Of a DNA stretch of 64,000 nucleotides, positions 2,785 through 30,208 are shown in pieces. The notes under the pieces were generated by a model. That model was given only the letters and a program-made list of their open reading frames with translations, searched no databases and was not told the origin of the DNA. Origin of the DNA: Yuukianura sp. NJ FZ-2021 (Eukaryota); NCBI GenBank assembly GCA_046563655.1, contig CM102286.1, positions 4,464,001 through 4,528,000 of the forward strand, in the 5' to 3' direction. Each line of letters opens with the position of its first letter. Position 1 is the first letter of the stretch. A program made the translations under genes and the position numbers.

Positions 2785-4169
2785 CTTGGAAAATATCCTG
2801 TAGTTCCTTCGACAATTCCCTTACAAGAGCTTAACCCGGTAAATGTGTTGATTTAGGTTGATTTTCGGGTACGGTATCCTCTGCTGGATTCTAGAAGACA
2901 ACCCACGTTGCAGCCGGAAAGATCAAGAAAGCCACTTCAAATTTAAATTCAAGCACTCGCTTCTTATCACGCGCTCTTATCAACAGAACTCTCACCCTCT
3001 TATTACGACATCTCTTACAATTAGACCATCCATTAATTCCAATACCATGCTGACACTTGACAAAAAATTGGAAGCTGACCTCTGACCCCGCTACTTCTCA
3101 AGACTTTTTTGCATTACAAGTTACCCTATGATTAGAGCGTTAGTACATCGTTAAATTAAAATGCTATTGTCATTTTCACCTACAAAAATTTCAATGCAAC
3201 CTCAAAAATTTACCGGATATGGCAGTCCCATTGTTAACCCGCCATTTTCCCGCCATGTAATTTAAAATTTTCTTGGCGGACGGAATTCTAAACGTTTTTA
3301 TCATTCTGAAACTGAATTTCGTCGATTTATCCAAAAAAAAAAATGAATTTTCCCGCGGACTGTTATCGGTTTCACATTGGGGCACGCTGAGATGTGCTCT
3401 TACAAGCATGACTAAAAACCACAAAGATTATTGAGTTTTTATGACGTTTTTGTTGCACTTTTCGGTAATTCTTTTTTTGTTTCGCAGTGTTTAGCTTCCA
3501 TCAACCAGAACCAGTAAACAATCACTTGATGAAATTACAAATTTAAATTTAGTTAACAACTAATGATTTCATAATTAGTAAAATTGATCATTTAATTGTT
3601 AAAAAGACTTCCACGAAACCCCTTCTGGCGTGACATCCAGTACTAAAAAATGCAGGATGAAGACCGTAAATGCCTATATTTCCTGGCTTTTGTATTACTC
3701 AAGGTCAACCGGTCTGGGCCATCATTTAAGCCTACTCTAAACCCTAGTATTGTTAGGTGCTGTTCTGCTGCTAACCATGGACTTGGTAAGGCCAAGGATA
3801 TGGTTTATGGAGTCGCTTGGTTATGTTCTTGAATCGATATGATCTGTAACTCTGACTCAGAAAAACAGTCATTCTTTCATTAGAATCGGCATCGGTGCAA
3901 GACTTCAAAAGAAAACATAGAGAGTCCTCAAAATAAACTGATTGTTTAATGTAGTCCTTGTGCAAATTTGAACTCACAAAACTTTTTAGAGTTCGTAGTA
4001 CAAGTACAAGTAACCAAAAATAGTTGAATCTGCAATTCAAAAAATTCAGACTTTCGTGGAACATCATCGTCTGTGTCCTCGGGCGGATTGAAAGTTAACA
4101 CATTCTCAAACCTAGCACTTCAACTACGTTTCAGCACCGTTTCAAAATTCTGGACACTAACGAAATGTA

Positions 4170-7025
4170 ATGGCAAACTCTAGTGAAACGAACAGCAACA
4201 ACGACAATTTAGAAATGAAACGCTCAAAACCAAACAAAGTGGCCAGTGACCAATCGTTTTTCACACCAACATGGCACCAGCATTGTTGTAACGATGCTTG
4301 TGTGCACAGAGTTGCGCAGACTGCCGATTCTGCTAAACTGTCGGAATTTCTGAAGCGAAACACCGCAGACGTAAATTTAGCAGACGAGCAAGGAAGAACG
4401 GCTCTGCATTGGGTCAATTCAATTAGTAAGTTTAGAAGTTACATAATTCATTTATCACAAAGGGAGGTTCAAATATTGATTTCAAAAAACCATTTCTTAG
4501 AATGCAGTTGCGAAAACTGTTTGAATCAAGCAGAGGAATGCGTGCGATGTTTGTTGGACAGCGGTGTAGAATTGGACGTAAATTGTAAAGATTCTGAAGG
4601 AAATACTCCGCTGCATTTGGCAGTGAAATATGGAAATACTAAAGTAGCGCAGCTTTTACTTGCAAATGGTGCTGATACTTCAATTAAGTAAGTTTTCAAC
4701 ATTTAAAATTAAATTTTTGAAGAAAGTTTAAAAACCTCCGACTTTGTTCAGAAACAACGAAAATCAGGAAGTACTTTCGATGATTGCTCAAAATTCGCCA
4801 GAAGTTATGGTGTCCGTCCTCAATCAGGCAGTTACCGTTGCCAAGTTTTATCCCAACAGCAAAGATTGTGTTCTATCGCTAGATTTCAGGTAAATTCTTT
4901 TAAATTTTGAATATTTCGGGATTAGTGAACCCGGAAATCCGAATCATAACACAAATTTTTGTAGTCTTATTTGATAAAATTTGATGCTAAACTTTCAACG
5001 CCAAATTGTTACGCGCATGTATAGTGCACACAAACTTTCACGGTGATTGCTTTAAAATGTTTACTTATTCTATTTTTTTTTTACCATCAGTGCTGTCACT
5101 GGTAATACAGACGACTCTGGAAAAAGCACCAAGTATAGGAGGGAGCTTTCGCTTTTAAATCAACTCCTGCGCACTAAAAAAGCAACGCGCCAAAAAGTAC
5201 TTACGCATCCATTAGTCATTCTTTTCCTGGATCAAAAATGGCGGCGTGTCAGGATGTACTACATGATGCTCTTTTTTTGCTATGTAAGAAACGTGAAATT
5301 CGTTTTCTATCAAAGCAAATTAAAAAATTCATTTAAAAAGATGACTTTTTTGTAGCTCTTTTGGTTGCTGTCTTACACAAGCTTTATCATCAAAGTGTAC
5401 TTGGTCAGTTGCCCTTGTGAAACATTTTCAAAAGAAATTAGAGCAAGATCTGCAATCAACCGAATAGCTGAATTTGACCATGAACTGTCTCCAGAGGTCA
5501 ACCGATGTCAACTGGAGACAGGATTCACATACAATTCATGTACAGTTCTGCTCCTGACGCTCATAATGGCTGTCAATGAAATTCTGAAAGTTGTTACCAC
5601 TCCGAGATTGTATTTCAGAAACAAGTTGAATTTGGGAACATGGGTTTTAATTTTCATGGTAATCATCACAACAGCACCGGTCCTCATGAAGACAAATAGT
5701 CAATTGGAGTCATGGCAGTATGAAGCCGCTGCAGTAAGTTCCGAGATTTCTACTTTCAAATTCAAAATCTTTTTTAAATTTCAAACCAACAAATTTTTGT
5801 GAAACGAATGTTTTAGTTGGCGATTTTTCTGTCGTGGGCTTTCATTTTGCGTCAACTTGGAACGTTTCCTTCACTCGGAAGATACGTTGAAATTCTTGGC
5901 CATGTACGATTCTTACGCCAATTTTTTGCGCTTGATAAAACTTAGTTTTGGGACAACCAATCTTGAAACCAATCTATTTTCGAATTTTGCACAGGTATTG
6001 AAAAACTTCAGTCTGTCGATGCTAACGTTCTCATCGCTGTTCATGGCCTTTGCATTGGCTCTTAACGTTTTATTTCCAGGCGTAAGTTTTATTTTCGAAA
6101 AAATTTTGCAAAAAATAGAAATAATGGAACCTTTTATTTCAGACTGGAAGTTTTTCACATTTTTTCTATGCAATTATGAAATGTATTGTAATGTTTACCG
6201 GAGAAGTTGACTACCAAGACATGTTCTACGACAAGGACAAAGACGACGCCACTGGACCAATCGTTGGACATCTTCTATACGTTGCATTTGTTTTGATCGT
6301 ATGTCCCACAAGAACTATGAAAATTTTGAGAATATATCTATATCATTTTCAAAACATTTTCAAATTTTTATCACATTCACTTTAACATTAACTACCTAAT
6401 TTTTTAGATCACCGTAGTTCTTATGAACTTACTGGTGGGTTTGACAGTGAGTGACATTCAGGTGGGTTTTTTGAAAATAATACACAGATATTGAAATCAT
6501 GGCTCCAGTTTTTTTTAATTTGAAAACATGACTTCGGAAATACATTCACTAATTTCATTTTCTCCAGTCTCTGCAGAAGGAAGCAGAATTGACACGTGTA
6601 TTTCGCCAAATCAGCGAAATGCTCAGCCTGGAATCCGCAGCTTTTTCTAGCAAGTTTCCTAAACCTTTCAATCGCTACTTCCAACGCATGATCTCAGTCA
6701 CTGGACACAAAGTTGAAGCTAAACCAGGAGAAGCAGCGTCTCCCGAAAACAAACTCCTGGACGAAACGTATTCAACGTAATGATCAAATATCTTTAACTG
6801 AAAAATAAAAGTAGTAACCATATCTTTAACTGAAAATTAAAAGTAGTAACCATATCTTTAACTGAAAATTAAAAGTAGTAACCAAAAGTTTCTTTTTTCA
6901 GCTCCATGTTAATCCTACCGAACGATCTAACGGACAAGAGGGTTCCAGAGCACTTGAAAGAAGCTATGCTTAAAATTGCAATAGGGAATTACCATCAGTC
7001 TAAAGTCAAGTCCAGAGGTCAATAG
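4170..7025 (+). CDS. TRPA-family cation channel (pyrexia/water witch-like), paralog 1, with about 3 ankyrin repeats
   Basis: Ankyrin motifs GRTALHW and GNTPLHLAVKYGN; pre-S1 THPLVILFLDQKW; TM segments; pore MFTGEVDYQDMFY; S6 ITVVLMNLLVGLTVSDIQ. Stop TAG at 7023-7025. Confidence 0.88.
6788..6883. repeat. Intronic tandem repeat, 3 x 32 bp (ATATCTTTAACTGAAAA(A/T)TAAAAGTAGTAACC)
   Basis: Three near-identical adjacent copies make up most of the last intron of TRPA paralog 1. Confidence 0.9.
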
Positions 7026-8519
7026 GTTGCAGCGTTACGTTAGATCAGGTGGTACGATTATTCGTATAATTCAAGCAACATCATTTCCACTTCAAGAATT
7101 TGGTTTAATGACGAATGGTCCAATCAAACAAAATTTTGGGTGAAAAAGCTAATTGATAAACGCTTGATTGATATTTTCGAGATTTTTGATTTCAATTGTT
7201 AGTTATGGCTCTTGAAAATCTTGACGCTTAAATGTGTATCTTGTTGACCTTCACCACCATCTTCAAAGTTATTCGTACGTGTTACAATCATTATACACTA
7301 AATATGGTTTTTTATAATATTTAAAAAATATAAATACAATAAAATTCTAACTCCATTATTAACTATCAAAATGATTGTAGCATTTTTATCGAACTTGTCA
7401 TAGAGTTTTACAGTGTAAAAAAATAGCAATCCACTTTTCAATATTTGAAAAAGAAATACGTATTTGCTGGAAATACAATTCGTACAGCGATGAGGTGTGT
7501 CATACACGTCACACGTTGGTTTAAATGATAGAGAAATTCAAAAATGCATCAATCTAGAAATTACCTCATTCAAATTACTTCAGTATTTTGCCCATTGGAA
7601 ATTTTCCACAGCAAAAATATACTTGTAAGGTCAGAGGTCAACCCACCTACAATGAATAACTTCCTACTCAATCAGTTCTTATGATACGCTTTGGATCATA
7701 ACCACACGAGCCTCATAGGCACTAATCGATAGCGAAATTGATAATTTCAAATTTTTCAGCATACTTTTCAGTACACAAAGATTAGAAAGAGGCAAAAGCA
7801 GATGAAGGAGCCACTTGGTAGAAATTCCAGTGAAACAAAAAGAATCACCAGGTAAATTGTCATAATTAAATCAGGATGAAGGCACTTCATATTTGTTCAA
7901 AATTAAAAGATAAAAATCAGTCGTCTAAAATCACTACTATTTAGTTTTTGATACTTACTATTTAGCACTAATTTGGCTTCTACAGTTAATACCAAGTCAG
8001 GTTCAACTGTAAACTGGAGGAGGATAGATAAGGAATCCACTAGAATAACAATGACATGCTAAACAATAGTTTTAACCATTTGGGTAAAAACAGCGCTTCT
8101 GTTTTTACAAGTTAGTGCAACTTTACAAGGGGCTTTTATCACTAGGCGTCAAATACACACCTCTTGTGCTGTTTGTGTCCACTGCTAACTAAAAAAACAA
8201 CTGAAATTGCATTTTGAACTGCGATTAGGCTGTTTCAGTCTATGTTGATTTGGGGATCACGGAAGAGTTAGGCATAAACCATTTGGATTTTTGGAATAGT
8301 GTACATAAGTTTACCATCATCCTCCAGATTAAGTGCAACGTTCAATTGGCCAGTATCAATCATCACGTAATAACTGTAGCATGTAGTTCCAAGATCCATC
8401 AGCGCAAGAGCATTACATGATTCTCAGCGTCAACACTTAGAAATTTCAGTTTGCATTCAAGAGTTGTTAAGGTACAGTAGTGAGCAAGGATTTTCAACTT
8501 TGAGTTTACTCTGGAAATT

Positions 8520-11500
8520 ATGCGGAAATATTCGTGGAAATCTTCCAAAATGAGTTTAAATCTTCCAGGAGATTTTTTAGGAGTTCCAAACGGGAATTCC
8601 GGCGGATCGAGTTTCGGTTCGCCGCCGCCAAGTCCTTGTCCCAGTGCAAATCCTACTTCGAACGGTGGAATATCAGCGTCTACTCCAATTCCTAAAATAA
8701 ATCCACCACCAACGAAAACTCACTCCAACAACAATTCAAAACCAAAATCCAGACCGAGTTTCAAGTATCCCGAAATTCTAATCAACAATAAAGCTCAAAG
8801 TGCTAGATTTCGATGGGCATCGTACTACAATGGATCGTCAGAACAAGCCAGTTTGTGTGACGATCCTTATAGTGGAAAACATGTTTGTTCTGATAAATGT
8901 GCCGATTTTAGTACCCCACTTCATGAGGCTGCTAAAGACGGAAACGCTGAACGAGTCGAAATGCTTCTGGACAATATCGAAGTCAATCCAAACGCTAGAG
9001 ACTGTTTGGGCAGAACTCCGCTTCACTACGCTGTTAAAGGAGGTAATTTTTAGCCTTCCTTTCTGATTTGTAGAAAAATTTGAAAAGTTAAATTGTAAAA
9101 AATTTGAAGATTTTTTTCAAATTTTGAAATTGTTTCATGTGATGTTTTCAGAATGTAATTGCGATTCTTGTATTGCTAATGCTGCTCAATGTGTTAATCT
9201 TCTTGTCAAGTGTAGCCGATGCGACATCAACATTCAGGATTACAATGGAGAGACACCACTTCACTTGGCCGCCGAAAACCAAGCAACAAAAGCCGCTGAA
9301 GTACTAAATTTTTTGTTAAAAATGTTTGCTAATAATGCGAATTTAATAAGTATCATAAAGCGTAAATTTTCATTTCATTTCAAGTTTTCATTTTACATGG
9401 TTTGCAGGTACTCCTTTATAATGGTGCCGACGTTTCGATAAAGTATGTTTGTTTTCATTTAAAAAACAACGCAATAATTGAAGGTTGTTTAAACTTTCAT
9501 TGAGTGATTTTGATTTGGTTAGGTCAAAGAGTGGAGTGAAAGCTGTAAAACTGATGGTAGAAAAAATCCCGGATGCAATGGAATGCTTATTGACACGAGC
9601 AGTGTCAATTGAGAAATATGACGCTTCAAATGCCAAATGTGAAGTAAAGATGGATTTCGGGTAATATTTGCAACTTTAAGCCTTAAGCCAAAAATGCTTC
9701 CAAATTGAAGGGGAGTATTTATCTAGTATCTAAGCCACTTCCAAAATTTTCCAATTTTTTTTTTGCTTCTTAGAGCGATTGTTGGGTACGAAACAAAACT
9801 AGGTACGCGAGACAGTACACGTCAAAAAACTCCGCCCATTAATGCCAATGCCAATGACACCACGCGCCCAGGTTTCCGCAAAGAAACGCAACTTCTGACA
9901 CTCATTCTCGAATCTGCAAACCGAAATTCCCGCAAAAAAATTCTGACGCATCCACTCATTGCCATGTTTTTGTACAAGAAGTGGAGATGTATCAAGCCAT
10001 TGTTTTGGGCCATGATTTTGTTTCACGTAAGTTAAACATTTATACTTCTAATTTTCAGTGCATCTTGAAGCTAATTCATACCTGAAGGTCACTTCCAAGG
10101 TCACATACTTTGACCCCATGCAGTTTCTGTTTGCAAACTAACTACTCTATCAACATTTCAAAGATATACACACATGGGTTCAATCAGTTACTATTTCTAA
10201 ACACAAAACCTAAACATTTTTTACTCTTCAACTTTTAATTTGCCGCGATCTTGTGGTTTGAAGAGCCATTTTGTTTATTTGTTCAATTTTCAATTGGGCG
10301 AAACTGTCTGTAGCAAAAATTTTGAACTTGCATACAAATCAGAACCAGAGAGACGAAGTAATTGAAGGCATGATGACTAATGCACAAAACGCTTAAAAAA
10401 GAAATGTTAAAAGCCAAAGTTTTTAAAAATGGAAAAATTTGTTTATAGGCGGCGCTGTTAATTTTGTATACTGTGTATATTCTGGATGTCTATGTGATCA
10501 GTTGTCCTTATCGATTGAAAATTACGGAACCACTGCACGTAAAAGCAGCTAAAGCAGCAGGACTCAAAGAAGGATTTCTAACAAACCAGAACGAAACGAT
10601 TCGAGCGGAGTACATCCAATTTTCCTGGTTTCAATTTCTACCGCAACTGAACATGAAACAAATTGAACTTGGTAAGTTTTCGAGCGAGGCAAGGTCAAGG
10701 TTATTTAAGTATACACATGAAAAACACTGAGGCAGACTATAACTAAAAGTGCATTAGGGTCAATGACCTCAAAGATTCTGGGTCAATGATCTCAACTTCT
10801 CTGATTATTGTTTAAGGAATCCTTGGGAATACGCTGGAGTGTAACTTGGAAATTGGACCGACCGTCAAGTCTATTTTGCTTTTATCCCTAACGACTCTAA
10901 TGAGTTTCAATGAACTGTTCAAAATGCTGCCAGCACCTCTGCTGTACTGGAAAGCCAGTAACAACCAATTCCAGTGGGCCTACTTTCTAGTTATCTACCT
11001 CACGGCATGGCCTGTCTTCATGGAGCAACCCAACATTTCGTTCTGGCAGTATCAAGTGGCAGCGGTACGTTTTTCATCTACATAATAGAATTGAAAAAAA
11101 AATTCATTTCATCTTTCCCATTAAATTCATTTCTTATACATTATATTCTTGTACATGTCAAATTTTGAAAATGTTTAGTTTGGACTATTTTTGGCGTGGT
11201 CAATTATGTTGTTTCAAATTGGAAAATTCCCGAGACTTGGACTCTACGTTTCAATTTTGATACAAGTAAGGAACATTAAGTTAATCGTTTTACTTTTACA
11301 TTTTACAAATTTGTAATCTACTAAATTGTTTTCAGGTGCTTAAAAACTTTGGATTTTTTATGCTCACGTACGCATCGCTCGTCATTGGATTTGCACTTGC
11401 ATTCTGTGTCATCTTTCCTGGGGTAAACTTAACTCCATCCAAAAATTTTTTAGAGAGGTTATTAGTGGTACAAATCAGTTACTACAGTTCATTCGAAGTT

Positions 11501-13288
11501 TTTTCCGCAACACCGTTGTAAATGTAATTTTGAAAAGGATAACAATATTTAACAATCTGAAATACAAATGCATTTAGTACTAGCATTTATTTCATTGTCA
11601 TTTTTTTTAACAACAAAAATTATTTTACTTTTTTTTTTAAATCCAGAATGCTGCCTATTCTTCGATTCCACTCGCCATATTGAAAGGTATCACATTGTGC
11701 ACATTTCAATTATAACTTTGAATTTATTGGCACATGAAAACTAATTAAGGTGCTTGCTTTACAGTAATGATGTTGATGGTTGGAGAAGTGGATTACGAAA
11801 CGATGTTTTACGGAGAAGAGTAAGCAACGCTCCAGAAAGAAAATTTTAAACCTGACCTAATATAATTTGGATTAGTTTGGATTTGATAAAATCTTAACTT
11901 TCAATTTTTTAATACATCACAGGGAAAGCCCAGTGGATGACCTCCTTGTAAGAAATTGGACCAAACCACTTTTTAGTACTAGAATACTTTTTGACCTGCG
12001 CTGTGGGAAGTAATTGTAACTTTTAATAATTTTAGTATCCCGTAACTGGACATCTCCTGTACGGCTTATTCGTTGTAATGATCACCATCGTGCTTATGTA
12101 AGATTTATTTCACGCGGGCTTTTGCATAAAATTATTGCAAACTATAAATCATAGCAGATCATTAGCGCGAAACCCGAAAGCAATAAGCGCGAATTTATCA
12201 AGTTGGCAACAGTGGAACAGGAACTGAACCACATTGGGGCGTAAGACCAATGCTTTTAACAGGGTAACTAGGTTTCATTGGTAAAAGTAGTTGCACTGTT
12301 GCCAACTTGTGAAATTAGTGCTTATTGTTTTCGCGTTGATGACCTGGAAGCTTAAGAATTAACTGTTTTGCAGGAATCTCCTGGTCGGTTTAACAGTCAG
12401 CGATATTCAGGTCAGTCCCCATCTTCGAAATAATACTTTCACACTAATTAATTCAACTGGTATTCTCAAGAGTGCTGTCATTTGCAAAAGCTAATTCGAA
12501 ATCGAATGCACAGGGCCTACAAAAAGACGGCGAGATTATGCGTCTTTCGCGTCTGATTAGTGAAATCTCGCAATTGGAATCGTTTATTTTTTCCAAACGA
12601 CTTCAGTCAATTTTTCCAGCCCGAGTGGCGTTGTTTCTACGTGATACCATTCTTGTAGTCCCAGTACCGAAACTCGTGTCAACTCTCCCTATGACGGCTG
12701 CAATAGACGACCCAGCAGCAGACAAGTAAACTCATAAGTTGGCAACATTAAAAAAAATGAAATAAGTTTAAAACGTAAATTTTTCATGTTTTCAGTTGTA
12801 CCTTCACTATATATCCAAACGATCCAAATGACAAGTCAGCTCCCGAGCATTTAAAAGCCAGCATTCTGCGTGTAGCGGTATCACGACACCGAATCATTAA
12901 AACAAACCATTGCAGACATCAAGGTGGGCGAGATTCATTTGCTGCGGAAATGGGACCAGCGATGGACGAACCGCTGCCGCAATCGTTATATACACATCTT
13001 GGCTTGCCGCTGCCACATTATGCACTTGGGCCATCATCGACACATTCCCTCTTCGTACCCCAAATTCAATTGGACACTGAAGACATTGGGTTTGTTGGAC
13101 CGAGCTACGCAAGACGCAATGTGATAATTGACGAATATCCGAGAACAAGGAGAAAAAGTACTTCAAGTGCCGTTTCCAATCAAGAATATCTCTCGAGAAA
13201 GCTTGAAGAAAAACTCATGGATAGGATTAAGGTTCAGATGGACGCTTTGTACCAAAAAATAGAAGATAAAATAAGTGAGCTCAAGTAA
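8520..13288 (+). CDS. TRPA-family cation channel (pyrexia/water witch-like), paralog 2, with about 3 ankyrin repeats
   Basis: STPLHEAAKDGN, GRTPLHYAV, GETPLHLAAEN; THPLIAMFLYKKW; pore MVGEVDYETMFY; ITIVLMNLLVGLTVSDIQ; C-terminal coiled coil KLEEKLMDRIKVQMDALYQKIEDKISELK. Intron positions largely shared with paralog 1. The start could be the ATG at 8520 or 8550. Confidence 0.88.
12156..12345. mobile_element. MITE-like element with imperfect ~60-bp terminal inverted repeats, in an intron of TRPA paralog 2
   Basis: CAATAAGCGCGAATTTATCAAGTTGGCAACAGTG on the left pairs with CACTGTTGCCAACTTGTGAAATTAGTGCTTATTG on the right; no coding capacity. Confidence 0.6.
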
Positions 13289-14532: not shown

Positions 14533-17500
14533 TTAACCTTCATATTGGGTCAAGTACTCTGAAATCCCAATTCTGTCCCGTTTGAGCCATGCAGAAGCGT
14601 TATGAATCTTTTCCAAACTCTGCGAAATGATTCGTTCACATCCCGGAAAGCTTTGATGTGTTTTGAAGAAATCGGAGATTTCAATTAATTTTTCTTCAGT
14701 ATTGTAGCACTCTATGACTGCTTGAAGTAACTGACTCAGCGATTCGCTTCCCTGAAATGAAAAAAAAACTACGAATTTCTGTTATTGTTGTGATTGCAAC
14801 TGCGACGTACTGGAGGATACCGATGACCAAGAATTGCGTAGCGTTCTTTAAAAAATTCCCAAAGAATGTTCCGACCCAAGGCATTTGATGCCAAAGATTT
14901 GAAAACCAAGATTGTATCTTCTTGATGAACATGATCTGACAATGAAAATTCCAAGACATCACGTAGTACAACCTCATTTCTGCAAAATCCCAAACTCTCT
15001 AAAATGTCTGCCCGATCTTTCCAGTCGTTGATGGATCGAAAACGCTGCAAAATGAAAACACAACATACGATGCCCAAAAGCACTACAAAATTTTGCAAAT
15101 CCGAACTTACCCGAATTACAGACTGAAACGTCGCATGGTCGCCAAAAGTCAAGCCAGCTTTGTAAATCATCGGAACAACTTGCGGTGGAAACTCCTCTCC
15201 AAGCATCAAACTTTCGAATCTTTGCTGTCCTTGTTGCAGACATCCTTCATGACCGCAAATCAGCAGGCGGGAAATTACAATTTTTCGGATCAACTTGTCT
15301 CTATTGCCTGTTTGAAACCAAAAATTTCATCTTGTAAAAAAATGGACTCACGGTTACTTTGTCTGACATACTTTCGTCATCGGGAGCGTTCCATCCAACC
15401 CGTTCATAAGCGTTCTTGTAAACTGCTTTGATGTAATTTTTGTAATTGGCGTAACATACGTCAGTATGTAAAACCAAATCAAGGTCATGGACAACTTCGT
15501 CCACGTACATCCAAATGGGCAAGTTGTCTTCGTCTTCAAATGCTTCCAAGAGACCAAACACCTATCGTTTTTAGAAAAAAAAAGTTTTCAAAAACACAAT
15601 CTTATGCTGAATTGATTTTTTTCTAATTGGAACAATTTGAAATTTTGTTACTTCAATGCTGCTGCTCATTCCAGATTCCGCTAGTGCAAAAGTGTCAGAA
15701 AGCATTCCCAATCTGTCCAATGGCGGCATAGATTTAACTCGAATGGCTTGTCGAAACATGGAGAACATCTCTACTGGATACTTGACGCGATAAAATCCAG
15801 TTAAACCAGGGTTCAACTAAAAAATTTTTCAAATCAAAATTTTTATAAATTATTCCATAAAAACAATGAAAATTATTTTTAAAAAATTATCTTTTTTAAC
15901 CTTGAACCATTCCCCTTGTGCAATTTTAGGCAATCTGAAAGATATGGATCGTTTGTCCAGCAGAACTTCCTTGGCCACATCATATGGATTCGAACTGATA
16001 GAAATTGACACAGGAATAATCCAAAGTGCATTGGGTTTTCCAGTGATAGAACTTGAGTCAGAGCAGAAGACATGTTGATGCATCGTAATCACGCGGGAAT
16101 TGTTTTCATAACGAGCCGAACTAACTCGGACCAGTGGAAATCCCAATTGCTTAGTCCAAGACAGCATCATGCTTGTAATCGGTTTTTCCGTAACGCGTTC
16201 CAGAACTGCGCAGAACTCTTCAGTAGTTGCATTGCCATAAGCATATTTCTTCAAAAATGCGTTCAAAGCCTGTCGAAACTTGTGTTGACCAATGTAGTCC
16301 TTAATCATGCGCAGAACTGCGGCTCCCTTGCTGTACGCCATGCTGTCCAGTACTTCTTTAAGCTCCGATGGTTGCCGAATGGGCACTTCAATGATATGAG
16401 TACTCGTCAGGGCGTCCATTTCTAAAGCCTTGACATTGTGCTCGGCTACAAAGCGCATCCAGACATCGTCGTCTTCGGGTTCCATTACACTAAGGCTAAC
16501 GTATTCCATGAGTCTCGCCAGCGATTCGTACAACCATAAATGTGTCCACCACTTCGGCGTTACCTGATTCAGATCATTTTAAGTCATTGATTGTTTTCGT
16601 TTGTTCAAAATGTGATTCACAAAACTTACAAAATTGCCAAACCATTGCTTAAAGATGACATGCGCCAGCATGGTCACGACACTCCAATGGGTAACACTGT
16701 CCGAGTCAACTTCCATAATATCCCCTTCGTTGATAATAACCAAACCCCAATTTTCACTGGCGACGATACTGGATCTAGTGATTTTCTCCACCAAAATGTC
16801 GAACTTTCGCATTGGGAAAGGAATCATGAGGTACTCCGTGAAGAATGTGATGAGATTATGCACCGTTTCAAAAATGTGCTTTCCCGGAAGTCTCCGCGGA
16901 GGAACATTGGCGTATATTCGGCATGGAATGTCCACATGAACAAATTCTTCGATGTAATTGAAGTGGCCAATGGCAAAAGCCAGCAGGGCAGTTGACATTT
17001 TGGGGGTTGAATCAAATTCAACAACGTGGAGGTCCTTGTCTGTCCGATGCGGAAATGAAACTTTGGTTGCCTGAATTGCAAATTTCAAATTTCAAAAATA
17101 CGCAAATTTATTCTAAAATTTCTTTTTTTATTTTGAACTGAAATGTTGGTTTCTCACCATGTTGGAAACGACAGTCATCGTTTTTGGGAGTATAAAACTC
17201 AAGCGAAAAGTGGCTTTGAAAGACGGTTCATCAAAACATGGAAAGCACTTTCGCGCTTGCGCTGGTAGAAATTTTGTCATGGGATTGAAATGCTGCTTTC
17301 CAAATTCATTTGTGTACTTGGAAGCATAGAAGCCATTTGAGCGCAACTCCTTCAGAAATCCTTTGAAGTTAATCAATAAATTTCCCGGTTTTGCTGGCAA
17401 AGCTGGTTCAAACATTATGTTCAAGCGTTGGTCTGTTGGAATTGGTGTCATGTCTGTTGGATAATGCTCAATAAAAGTGTCATCTTCAGTCCAAACTATT

Positions 17501-17920
17501 TTTGTTGTGGCGAGCCCAGCACAGTTCAATGTGATCGACTCCACCTCGGCTGTAAGCTAAGAAAAACAAAGCAAAATGAGATCAAAATTGCCTGAAGTGG
17601 AATACTGGCCAGTACGGGTATACCTCGCATTGAATCGCCACACATCCTTCGAAAACAAGGGCTTCCAGATCTGGTTTGAGGCAAATCGTATAGTGGACTG
17701 GGACAAAGTTTCTGATCAATTGGAGTTTAGCATCTTCGTGTCCAAATTGGTAGTGATGCTGTGTCAGGAAATATTGGTGGTAGAAATCACCAGCTACAGT
17801 TTTCGCTGGTCGGCAAATGGCTTCGTAAGGAACGCCAGGCGGGAAAACAAATTTTTTAACAGTGTTAGGAACGGTTTTGCGTTTAGAGCAGCGTTCAGCT
17901 TTACTAGCGCGGTGTGCCAT
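14533..17920 (-). CDS. Puromycin-sensitive aminopeptidase-like M1 family protein with a degenerate active site
   Basis: FVPVHYTICLKPDL, ARKCFPCFDEPSFKATF, FDSTPKMSTALLAFAIG, AYSKGAAVLRM, MMLSWTKQLGFP, NPGLTGFYRVKY and an ERAP1-like C-terminal region. GAMEN reads VASEN and HEXXH reads HVIFK. Confidence 0.88.
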
Positions 17921-18493
17921 TTCTTACAAAGTCAACTACGGAGTAAAAATTTCTTGAATTGACAACTTTGTTCCTTCCAAAAACTAAAAAAATTTTTTTG
18001 TGTCGTTCACTTCTCTACAATAATCGTAAAAGTAGTGCAAAATATTTAAACAATGAAACATCCCGAATTGCACAGCACGCTGCTCGGTCACTATGGAAAA
18101 ATCATTTGAAATTTGACAAATGTGTTAAAAAAAATTATGACTCCTTACAATTAGTTTTTCCAACTTTTCCATAAAGTTCATTTTCGTGGTCATGCAAGTC
18201 ACAGTAGTTGGATACTTTAGTTGACCTCCAGTTTTCTGAATGTGAGTGAATTTTTTATTACGTGACATTTCTTTCTCAACAATTTACAATGTTTTACTAT
18301 TGATATTTGTCCGAGATAAAGTTGTTGCTTTTTTTTTCTATGCAAGCCACTTTCGAGTGGATGAAAGTTATCGTTTCTGTACTTCCTAGTGTTATCATAG
18401 CAAACAACTGCAATTCTAAGTCAAGGATTTCCAATTTCCTAGCCTGTAAATTCACTAAACTTAAGCAATTCAGCAATTACAAACTGGAATGAA

Positions 18494-19402
18494 ATGGCGT
18501 TCGGCTATCAACGACTCTACGACGAAGAAGAGGAAAAAGAGAAGGAGATTTCTGAAATTTCCTGGACGCGTCTGCATCATTGCTACTCAAAACTAGCTAC
18601 GACATCGCAAATCGCCTCGCTCATGCTGTTCTTTGCCGTGGTAAGCAGCATCGACCCAGAAATATTTAATTTTAAAGGTTAATTAAAGAAATACTTTAAC
18701 TTATGCTAAGTTGTTTACTAAGTTTGTATTTGTGTTGTCATTTTATAGATTTCGGCGGTAGAACTCAAGTTATCTCAGAACGAAACGAGTGAATTTCTAA
18801 TAATTTCCTTAGTCGTGACAACGTCGCTTCTAGTTGCATCCACAATGCTTGTAAAGACAGTCGCCTGCAGTTTAATACCCTATTTGGAATCTGTTGTTGT
18901 AGTATCACAAGTTGAAGATGTCACTCGATCTCCACATGAACAAATGATCATATTCGTCAACATAACTTGGCTCATAGGAACAATCGTTCTGCCTGCCCTC
19001 TTTGTTGTGGACCTCATCATCATGACATGGATCCAATTCAGATTCTTGGCCCTGGAAGCTGCTTTTGCTGCAACAATCATTCTCCTTCCGCTTCTGATAA
19101 TCATTTTAGCATTTGGAATTGTATTTTTCAAACAAACAATGAAGTCTGATACAGATTGTATTCAACTGTCAAAGGTAAGTGGAGAATACGTGAAGCGTCA
19201 ACAACAACAGTTTGCCAAAAATAGACACGGAAGCGACTGTTTATCGATGTCAACAAGTTCTTCTCTCATCACTTTCAACAGTAGAACGGGAGACTATGAA
19301 GAAAAGTTGACACTTCTTCCACAAAATCCTCTACATATGTACACGTCGTATGGATCGACGGTCCCAAGTAGCATAATGTCACTTTGTGGATTCCTGGACT
19401 AA
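18494..19402 (+). CDS. Divergent Orai (CRAC calcium channel) family protein, two exons (intron 18641-18748)
   Basis: ISWTRLHHCYSKLATTSQIASLMLFFAV|ISAVELKL aligns with Orai TM1 ([33 protein letters not shown]). LIPYLE...SPHEQM...W matches Orai ILPNIE...SPHERM...W; LFVVDLIIMTWIQF matches LFLAEVVLLCWVKF; four hydrophobic segments. Confidence 0.82.
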
Positions 19403-20457: not shown

Positions 20458-26336
<5,879 letters not shown>

Positions 26337-27290: not shown

Positions 27291-30208
27291 TTACTTCAAA
27301 TTGGCCTTATGAACCAACTCGGGCATTTTGGCAAACATGTCCACAAGTGGGTTCATGTACTCCGAATTAAACGTTGACACGAACTTTTGCTGATCTTCCA
27401 ACTCCCGCTTAAACTTTTGTCCATCCTGGTCTTCCCCTTTGCCTGCATCACTTGGCAGTCGATTTCCGTACTTTTTGTGGATGACGTTGTCCAGACAAAG
27501 GGCCAACTGAAGTTTCAAGTCCTCAGCATACTTCAAGCAAACGTCCTTCATTTGGCTAAAATGTGGCCAAGCAGATTTAAAAGTTGAGCTCCAGTCCTGG
27601 ATTAGTTTCAGTGGATGAAGTTCTGGACAAAGCTTGCCGGATTTGTTGGCGAGGTCATTGACTTTCTCTTGATACCCTTTAAACTTCGGTTCAATTTCAC
27701 TAAATGGAAACTTCGGTGGTTCGTCAAAGGTTTTTGTTTCGTCATCAAGAGAAGATAGAGCCTTGAGGACGACGCCTTTCATATCTTTCTGATTCGTTTG
27801 GACCCGCGTGATGCTACCGTCATCACCAGTATTGTTTGAATTGTGTTTCATATTTTTACTACTGAAAGCAAAAATTGAAATGTTCCGATCCGATATCCAT
27901 GGCTTGATTTTTTCCACAATTTTTTCGGTGCCTTCGTCGCTTGCACCACGAACGATTACCTCAGGCGAGCTCTTTTCGTTACTAGTGGTTTGCGTAGTCA
28001 TGGTCTTCTTCTTGTAAATTCTTCGGAGTAGGGATTCTTGGGATAAATTTTCGTTTGATGGTTGCGTATCTTCGTTGGAATGGTCCGACTTATTGGGGCT
28101 GTCAACGTTTACTTCCGGTGAGCTCGGTTGTTCGTTACTGGATGTTTGTGTTGTCGTTGTTGTCTTCTTCCTCTTAATTTTTCGGTTAACCGACTCAGTA
28201 TTGGAGGAACTTTCGTTTGATCCTTGCGAATCGTCATTGGATTGGGGTGACCTAGACCGGTCAACATTTTGCAATGCGTCTTCGATGCCAACGTCATCAA
28301 CGTTTGCGTCTGGTGAACTCGGTCCGTCACTAGCGGTTTGCGTAATCTTTATTGTCTTCTTGTTATTAATTTTGCGAATAACGGTTTGTGTTCGGATCCA
28401 ACCTTCGTTTGATCCTTGCTCTTTGGATCGGTGTGGTGGAGCCGTCGTCTGCTCAATTGACGCTTGCGGTGAATCTTCTTTGGGTTTTTCAGCCGAAGTC
28501 TCAGCGGAGGGTGCTTCTGTTGGCGGGTTTGATGGCTCTTCTTCTGGCGGATTTGACGGCTCTTCTACTGACGGCGGATTTGACGGCTCGTCTTCTGGCG
28601 GATTCGGTGGCTGTTCTGTAGATACTTCAGCTGAAGCTTCTTCAGACCGATACGACGGTTGTGTAGGCTCAGCTACTGGTTCATCTGTAGCTTCATCCGT
28701 CGGATGATCCTCATTTGGACACTTCTCTGTCGTCTTTTCGTCACTCTCAGGGTTTTCCGTGGGTTGTTCTACTTCTTCATTTGACTCCGTCTTGCTTTCG
28801 ACCGATTCCTCATCAGACACATACTGATATGTCGTAGTTTCTATTGACAAGTTGGGCGGCTCTGTTGTCACTTCTGGAGAGGCTTCTTTTGATTCTTCAT
28901 TTGAAGGTTTGCGGTATGGAGTCTCTTCTTCCGATTTATATGGCTTCTCTTCTTCATTTGAGCGGGAAACTCCGCTTTCCAGGCGATAAGGCGTCTGTTC
29001 CTGTGATATATATGGAAAAGGATCAGGATGCGCGTTCTCCGTTCTTGTCTCTTCAACAGAATCTGCTCTTGAAGGTTCCGTGGGTTGGTCATTTATGATT
29101 ACAGGAGGATTCGTTGGTTGTACACAGCAAACGGTGGGAGTTTGTGGCGGAGGTTGGCAGCATGATCCGGGCGGATTTGGATTTGCAAGGGCCATGAAAC
29201 TGAGTTCGTCCAAACGTGGTGCGAATATTTTTGAAAGATTGTGTCCTTTGTCGTATCGTTCGTACTGACCGCCTTTCTTCATCATGACGTTGAAAGACAT
29301 TTTGTGGTGTGATACTTCATCGCCATCGTGAGACTCATGACTGAAATGTTCGAAGTTGCCATTTTCGGTATCTGCGGGAGTACCTACACCGGAGCCGTCT
29401 GGTCCGTCGGTACTTTCAACCTTCCCATTGCGTTTGAGGAAATGCAGATAGTTGTTCAACGCATTTATTCGTTTCTTCACATTAGAAATTTCGTGGTGCT
29501 CTGGTTGGGGTTGAATGGTGTCGTCACCAGCGGCATTACTTTGAACGTCAGTTGGATTCGAACCGTCATCAGCGGCATTACTTTGAATTGCATTTGGATT
29601 CGAACCGTCACCAGCGTCGGTATTTCCCAGTTCTGCAGAGCCTGCTACTTTTGCGGGCGTGGTTAAAAGGATTTTTCGTAGACCAGTAAGAGCGACGTTT
29701 CCTTTGCGCTTAAGTTGAGGTACCACTTCTGCAGAGCCTGCTTCTTTGGCGGCCGTGGTTAACAGGAGTTTTCGTAAACCAGAAAGTGCGACGTTTCCTT
29801 TGCGCTTAAGTTGAGGTACCACTTCTGCCACTTCTGCAGAGCCTGCTGCTAGGGGCTCTGCTGGGGGCGTGGGTATGAGGATTTTTCGTAAATTTTTTAA
29901 GCCAGAAATTGCAAAATTTCCTTCGTTTTCATGTTCATGCCGATGATGTCTTCGGTAACTGCCCTTGTGTCTCGGTGCTTAGTGGTTAATAAATAGAGAA
30001 ATCAGTAACAATTTATTGGTTAACATGTAGAATTCAAAAATATTCTGATACATTTTGAAATATAAAATTATGTAACTTTCAAATTTTTACCTAGCGTTCC
30101 GTAGGTGTTGAAGTTGTTCACGTCACTTCTGTGGTCGATTGCTCCCGTTACCAGTAGCATAAATTCGAAGATTAGTAATGGATAAAGTAGAAATTTGTAG
30201 GATGCCAT
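27291..30208 (-). CDS. Secreted low-complexity (Glu/Pro/Ser/Thr-rich) repeat protein, unknown function; two exons
   Basis: Exon 1 encodes signal-peptide-like MASYKFLLYPLLIFEFMLLVTGA. A phase-1 intron (about 29979-30090) joins it in frame to the 846-aa ORF, which has 32-aa repeats, EEPSNPP repeats and a helical Cys-containing C-terminal domain. Confidence 0.75.

Follow-up and report, generated by a model that had tools for sequence, protein, structure and literature searches.

The gene at positions 18494..19402 of the window (the whole stretch of 64,000 nucleotides of Yuukianura sp. NJ FZ-2021 DNA that was analysed) is an intact two-exon Orai gene encoding 266 amino acids. With a probability of roughly 45%, we read its product as an Orai that has been uncoupled from STIM, sorted to endolysosomal or vesicle membranes, and is shut at rest. 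To judge from aligned sequences, two things are new here: a subclade of divergent Orai proteins, labelled 'K138', whose members are without the L273/L276 STIM-binding pair, and an acidic dileucine plus YG[S/A] motif in the cytosolic tail that is specific to this subclade.

The gene lies on the forward strand, as do all of its features given below. Exon 1 (18494..18640) comprises 49 codons, which encode an N-terminus that is short and acidic, followed by TM1 over its inner two thirds, and aligns without gaps to TM1 of canonical Orai. A 108-nt, phase 0 GT-AG intron (18641..18748) separates it from exon 2 (18749..19402), which encodes the end of TM1, TM2-TM4, the cytosolic tail and the stop codon. 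The position of this intron in TM1 is common to the canonical Orai of the same genome and to the orthologue at metagenome locus L020. We infer the placement of the exon 1 start codon, and an upstream exon is possible: the frame is open from 18443, and a candidate splice acceptor at 18474 closes a stretch (18456-18474) that includes a branch-point-like CTAA. An out-of-frame ATG at 18489-18491, 5 nt ahead of the Orai start, would open a short overlapping frame. The N-terminus carries a YxxL-type GYQRL sequence (18503..18517) before the acidic run, which may tentatively be read as a sorting signal; its equivalent in L020 is YMRL, but that methionine may be the start codon.

On one flank, an M1 aminopeptidase gene (14696-17950, reverse strand) lies about 550 nt from the Orai gene in head-to-head orientation, and on the other flank lies a CNH-domain gene (20460-23310, reverse strand). 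The window also holds two tandem genes with ankyrin repeats recognised by Pfam, followed by hydrophobic exons (4161-6210 and 8484-13288, forward strand), which we take to resemble a duplicated TRPA-type channel pair, and a single-frame protein of 669 amino acids (27291-29300, reverse strand), which has short repeats, a high content of Glu, Pro, Ser and Thr, and no Pfam match.

The gene product belongs to the Orai family, with the four-TM fold and the E106 filter. Exon 2 matches the Pfam profile Orai-1 (PF07856) at 62.8 bits against a cut-off of 25 (E 4e-17), so that the family assignment of an earlier note on this DNA stands, and it matches Drosophila Orai (PDB 4HKR) at E 6e-20; the same gene scores 61.7 bits in a genome-wide Orai profile search. 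Exon 1 by itself gave zero matches in the Pfam and PDB searches. An AlphaFold model of exon 2 contains three long helices (15-52, 63-97 and 102-157), with pLDDT mostly above 85 across TM2-TM4, TM1 being placed by sequence alignment only. When this model was used as a Foldseek query, ranks 1 to 11 were all Orai structures with probabilities of 0.98-1.0, none of which reached an E value of 0.001.

Residues are numbered as in human Orai1, anchored on the H206A site in the PDB alignments and on the canonical paralogue of the same genome, in which the spacings E106-H134 (28) and H134-E190 (56) equal those of the human protein. W76, K85, L95, F99 and E106 are kept, as are E149, W176, F187 and P245. 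The changes comprise R83Y, K87A, R91Q, G98F, H134T, L138K and E190D, with T92I, S97L, V102I, Q108K, A137V, E173N, G183L and F250I in addition. In the inner pore, from W76 to Q91 (18563..18610), the basic set R83/K87/R91 is thus absent and replaced by Y83 (18584-18586), A87 (18596-18598) and Q91 (18608-18610). The gate region of TM1 (18611..18634) reads I92, L95, L97, F98 (18629-18631) and F99, and the outer pore (18749..18769) carries I102, the selectivity-filter residue E106 (18761-18763) and K108. T134 (18842-18844), V137 and K138 (18854-18856) lie in the TM2 brace (18842..18856), and D190 (19010..19012) in TM3. The gating checkpoints G98, H134 and L138 are therefore absent, with F, T and K in their places.

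Alignment to the canonical paralogue and the PDB entries bears out every kept and substituted residue that the earlier note had named. The substituted residues depart strongly from those usual in the family: among H134-type homologues with an intact TM1, position 98 is Gly in 66/66 and positions 83 and 87 are R or K in 66/66, and position 138 is L or V in 113 of 114 H134-type homologues. Position 91 is less strict than the note's description of it as highly conserved suggests (R in 32, T in 15 and K in 14 of the 66). The intron, the family context and the conserved tail motif were absent from that note.

The Orai profile search of the genome gave 11 exon matches, which resolve into at least seven loci; further searches of the genome with exon 2 or L021 as query gave zero additional Orai loci, and all counts are lower bounds. 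The first locus, on contig C8, is a canonical Orai with H134, G98 and E190, to which the present protein is 32% identical. Four tandem Orai genes occupy 621-627 kb of contig C6, the model of the last being without its 3' end, and the first of them has a copy near 648 kb with about 92% DNA identity. The present gene, on contig C4, is the seventh locus. A single SOAR locus on contig C8 represents STIM, again as a lower bound. The proposal that the gene is a non-canonical Orai paralogue is supported by the paralogue count and by the presence of canonical Orai and STIM in the same genome. At least seven Orai loci in one invertebrate departs from the statement of a review, in its accessible part, that invertebrates have one Orai, or two in Tribolium and Apis. 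In one of the tandem genes, C6_c (contig C6 622.5-623.4 kb; L014 2450-3350, reverse strand), we observed Asp at 106, Ser at 102 and Asn at 190; the counterpart in L022/P0123 carries Glu at 106, so that the filter differs between close orthologues. Just downstream of C6_d, an AT-rich tandem array of ~120-nt units (L013 7700-8700; contig C6 ~619.7-620.7 kb) interrupts the search for the last exon of that gene.

The gene's relatives were collected by a homologue search of cluster representatives, with the best 150 of 205 matches used; word-indexed protein searches were insensitive (2, 4 and 3 matches). A first tree of 151 of 162 sequences, 11 having been dropped for low coverage, splits H134-type Orai from about 30 divergent sequences. 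When 21 divergent or doubtful proteins were looked up, three clusters had an organism name, and all were springtails (Orchesella dallaii, Allacma fusca and Folsomia candida); on these few labels the divergent radiation appears to be springtail-specific. The ESM Atlas, searched with the Orchesella protein P0006, yielded nothing beyond haptophyte clusters that bear Orai and structure matches below the threshold for naming. In a second tree of 46 hand-picked sequences and 180 columns, the divergent radiation has support of 100/100 and the K138 subclade that includes the present gene 99.8/100; membership of the gene in this subclade of the radiation is thus a well-supported reading of the alignment. 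'K138 clade' and 'T91 clade' are labels coined in this analysis. The best tree sets the radiation beside the genome's own canonical Orai with weak support (85.3/59). An AU test of a sister relationship to the insect T91 paralogue did not reject that placement (p 0.13, from a fast constrained search with 2000 replicates), and a shared VELQIN sequence and E94 hint at an origin from that paralogue.

Several other relatives deserve mention as observations in their own right. The T91/E94 clade (P0027, P0028, P0033, P0039, P0040, P0058, P0079, P0129 and others) is widespread, with members from cockroach, psyllid, flea and dragonfly, beyond the Tribolium and Apis cases of the review. P0072 (Ephemera danica KAF4518549.1; 443 aa) has two tandem Orai domains, both without H134, and is either a fused Orai pair or two merged gene models. 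P0144, P0065, P0032 and P0014 are Orai-like proteins on further long branches. Of these, P0144 combines T134 and K138 with a retained G183 and E190, and is placed next to the K138 clade with weak support.

Within the K138 clade, position 138 is K in 8/10 members, R in one and Q in one; position 190 is D in 10/10; position 134 is T in 8/9 and M in 1/9; and position 106 is E in 7/8 and D in 1/8 of the eight members that cover the site. W76, L95 and F99 are kept in 5/5 members with a full TM1. At most one K/R of the three basic positions 83, 87 and 91 is kept in 5/5 full-length members; loss of all three was considered as a clade trait and rejected, as three of the five keep one. The clade-wide invariants persist at 38-62% identity. 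Loss of H134 and D/N at position 190 are common to the whole springtail divergent radiation and not peculiar to the present gene.

In the K138 subclade the tail, poorly conserved otherwise, contains an acidic dileucine-like motif and, no more than 15 residues after it, YG[S/A]. In the present gene these are EKLTLL ([DE]xxxL[LI]; 19301..19318) and YGST (19349..19360), the latter 17 residues from the C-terminus. The pattern as first set was found in 6/7 subclade tails, 0/18 other divergent tails and 0/97 canonical tails, with a shuffle expectation for the ordered pair of 0.02 of 7. P0168, found after the pattern was set, fits the ordered pair; P0169 has LM and so needed a relaxed pattern, P0002 and P0154 fit only with LV, and P0003 is without a dileucine match, its tail having exactly YGSI. 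Once two later-found members had brought the subclade tails to nine, the relaxed form, [DE]xxxL[LIVM] then YG[SA], was present in 8/9 subclade, 0/18 other divergent and 0/97 canonical tails. Taken singly, the strict dileucine occurs in 6/9, 1/18 and 1/97, respectively, and YG[S/A] in 9/9 subclade and 6/97 canonical tails. YG[SA] is followed by a hydrophobic residue in 5/9 subclade members, and the present gene's YGST is without that final residue. The pattern is post hoc, having been set from these tails, which share ancestry, so the counts are not independent trials.

[DE]xxxL[LI] and Yxx-hydrophobic sequences are adaptor-binding motifs (PMC9545562). Dileucine motifs target TPC2, BK and CLN7 to lysosomes (PMC11381013), and YGSI targets Nramp1 to lysosomes, its final hydrophobic residue being needed (PMC12247208). 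The only endomembrane Orai proteins named in the accessible part of the review PMC11381013 are Orai1 on secretory granules and Orai3, proposed as an ER leak. Our paper search found no earlier description of a dileucine-plus-YG motif, and no description of springtail Orai paralogues or dileucine-bearing Orai was found among open-access papers (titles and abstract starts). We put the chance that the tail is a working sorting signal at slightly better than even. The dileucine could alternatively serve endocytic turnover of a plasma-membrane protein.

The probable behaviour of the pore was judged from published human Orai1 mutants. H134T, A137V and S97L are each gain-of-function singly (PMC7825772), T92I gives a modest gain of function of 5-10 pA/pF (PMC9991058) and L138K reduces the current seen with STIM1 (PMC9991058). 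Neutralising the basic residues abolishes STIM1 gating and most H134S current, and V102A on such a basic-less pore rescues only a STIM1-gated, non-selective current, with no large constitutive current (PMC7034092), and G98F gave no constitutive current (PMC5321763). Taken together, these mutants predict a pore that is closed at rest and unresponsive to STIM, and not a leak, a prediction that assumes, with some uncertainty, that the effects carry over at ~30% identity. E190D keeps Ca2+ selectivity and makes Na+ current less sensitive to acid block, by nearly two pH units, and leaves pH sensitivity unaltered when Ca2+ is the carrier (PMC4649748). The case for E190D as an acid adaptation is weak because of this last result; the change is also common to other divergent paralogues, which are without the tail motif.

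The non-conducting pore predicted by these single and double mutants would fit equally well the main rival to our reading, a silent damping subunit that co-assembles with canonical Orai or with the C6 paralogues. Such a subunit would keep a mixed filter working through E106, bind no STIM and lower the open probability, and its dileucine tail would pull mixed hexamers off the surface. A single L273D subunit in six is reported to cut open probability by ~90% (PMC7825772); neither STIM1 nor H134S opens a pore that has lost the basic residues (PMC7034092), and L138K reduces current (PMC9991058); and the genome has both canonical Orai and STIM. However, at 32% identity to the canonical paralogue co-assembly is uncertain, the A102 and T102 of orthologues, in place of the present I102, open or rescue the human gate and look more like a tuning of conduction, and the strictly kept W76, L95, F99 and E106 suit a pore that is in use. 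We regard a damping subunit as less likely than our own reading, although it is the best of the alternatives, and we give the regulatory subunit suggested in the earlier note some probability in this form. That the protein conducts ions we consider somewhat more probable than not.

The four changes that singly confer gain of function (H134T, A137V, S97L and T92I), together with the V102A or V102T of orthologues, speak for a STIM-independent, constitutively open or leaky plasma-membrane channel for cations or Ca2+. Against this, H134S opening was lost once two basic residues were removed (PMC7034092), V102A without a basic pore gave no large constitutive current and the present gene has I102, and G98F was not open (PMC5321763); the conserved tail motif also argues against steady surface residence. 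The suggestion in the earlier note that H134T would open the channel without STIM finds no support in the same human data: H134S no longer opens the channel once the basic residues are gone, G98F does not open it, and current falls with L138K. A leak channel is accordingly a reading to which we attach little probability.

STIM coupling itself appears to have been dismantled. L273/L276 form the main STIM1 site, and two of the gating salt bridges R83-E149, K85-E173 and K85-E149 are said to be needed (PMC7825772). By ungapped count from P245, the nexus is changed (TMKSD) and the pair lost (19136..19183), with K at 273 (19172-19174) and G at 276 (19181-19183); in a gapped HMMER alignment position 273 is V and position 276 is again G. 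A hydrophobic residue at 273 with L, I or M at 276 occurs in 0/7 K138 members, 12/16 other divergent sequences and 62/73 H134-type sequences, the last being those of the 114 H134 rows in which the tail is long enough and P245 is aligned. With Y83 and N173, K85-E149 is the sole salt bridge of the three that could still form. As a homomer the channel is thus probably not gated by STIM. The present protein is not classed as a STIM-gated CRAC channel, four defining features being absent. 'STIM-independent' in the earlier note, taken as a lack of STIM coupling, is for these reasons probably right, with the L273/L276 pair lost and one salt bridge of three left.

A helix after TM4 is nonetheless predicted in both AlphaFold models of exon 2, the first built on an alignment rich in canonical sequences and the second having pLDDT of ~42 at this helix. 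The view that the C-terminal helix is gone was rejected on this ground, and the earlier remark that the C-terminus shows no coiled coil holds for the replaced L273/L276 pair but not for the helix itself. In four members of an Orchesella-type branch, a YSE[IL] stretch aligns with the 273-276 helix after a proline-containing insertion. Given this stretch and the predicted helix, STIM contact may not be wholly lost across the K138 clade. The channel could then still be store-operated, with opening and closing changes that cancel and a remodelled C-terminal helix that binds springtail STIM; K85 and E149 are kept, and the effects of human mutants transfer unreliably across ~70% divergence. This seems to us improbable in view of the pair's absence from all seven clade members, the changed nexus, the loss of two of three salt bridges, and the orthologue L020, whose nexus contains a Pro and which is net basic over 266-285.

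The gene is under purifying selection. The gene at L020 is its orthologue by synteny, flanked as here by aminopeptidase and CNH-domain genes, and shares 70% identity with the present gene over 160 core codons; dN is 0.21 and dS about 2.0, near saturation, and the dN/dS of ~0.1 is hence rough. A decaying or weakly constrained duplicate without a real role, as the long branches and an evolution faster than that of paralogue C6_b (whose L022 counterpart has a near-identical TM1) might suggest, is largely refuted by the open frame, clean splice sites, dN/dS, synteny and retained clade-wide invariants. We consider it almost certain that this is a functional Orai paralogue.

The preferred reading, a STIM-uncoupled Orai of internal membranes, may be put as a general mechanism. 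The K138 clade would have left the STIM-gated CRAC system, an uncoupling suggested by the loss of the L273/L276 pair and of two of the three salt bridges, and its members would be sorted to endosomal, lysosomal or secretory-vesicle membranes. Recognition of the tail by adaptor complexes AP-1/2/3 would deliver the channel to acidic compartments, where E106 would face the lumen and luminal Ca2+ or other cations would be released into the cytosol. The pore is probably shut at rest because of its lack of basic residues and the bulky residues at 98, 99 and 102. It would be opened by a cue other than STIM, acting on an already loosened TM1-TM2 brace (T134, I92 and V137). More speculatively, K138, from its place behind the pore helix, may make up for the positive charge that the pore lining has lost. 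An extension of this mechanism, tentative and on balance doubtful, would make the whole K138 clade an Orai subfamily devoted to organelles: freed from STIM, redirected to lysosomes or lysosome-related granules, and gated anew through a lysine behind the pore helix in place of the basic residues that lined the pore.

If the extended reading is true, the clade represents a new kind of Ca2+-release channel of acidic stores. The springtail gut has mineral and metal storage granules, which an organellar Orai might possibly serve. To our knowledge, Orai gating is understood almost wholly from point mutants of the human and fly proteins. The K138 clade amounts to a natural experiment: under purifying selection, changes expected to open the pore (T134, I/M/L92, V137, and A/T102 in orthologues) occur together with changes expected to kill it (no basic pore, a bulky residue at 98, and K138). 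It can test whether conduction really requires the basic inner-pore residues and G98, and can show what opens an Orai in the absence of STIM; a working tail motif would also make it an Orai specialised for internal acidic compartments.

Finally, the present protein may be set beside known systems. Canonical Orai (PDB 4HKR, 6BBF and 7KR5; human Orai1-3) has the same four-TM fold, E106, L95/F99, W76 and K85, and differs in its basic inner pore, G98, T92, S97, H134, L138, E173, G183 and E190, all of which are changed here, as are the nexus and L273/L276; the long tail of the present protein is of low confidence in the model. The insect T91 clade, a second Orai paralogue, is likewise an arthropod duplicate with a non-basic residue at 91, but keeps G98, H134, L138 and E190 and forms a separate clade in the best tree. 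Closer at hand, the other divergent springtail paralogues (C6 genes a-d, Allacma fusca CAG7816211.1 and Folsomia candida XP_021946110.1) form one 100/100 clade with the present gene and share its non-His 134, D/N at 190 and large residue at 92; unlike it, most keep G98, K83 and a hydrophobic 138, and E91 is usual among them. Within the K138 subclade, Orchesella dallaii CAL8113420.1 (P0006, annotated as uncharacterised) is 45% identical to the present protein and resembles it in T134, K138, D190, a bulky residue at 98, I102 and a dileucine plus YGA tail, and differs in keeping R83, in having E91 and M98, and in the YSEL stretch after TM4. Outside the family, TPC2, lysosomal BK, CLN7 and Nramp1 likewise carry acidic dileucine-type or YG[S/A]-hydrophobic motifs in a cytosolic tail. 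These proteins have unrelated folds, and the likeness, drawn with motifs that are putative in the present protein, is a functional analogy only.
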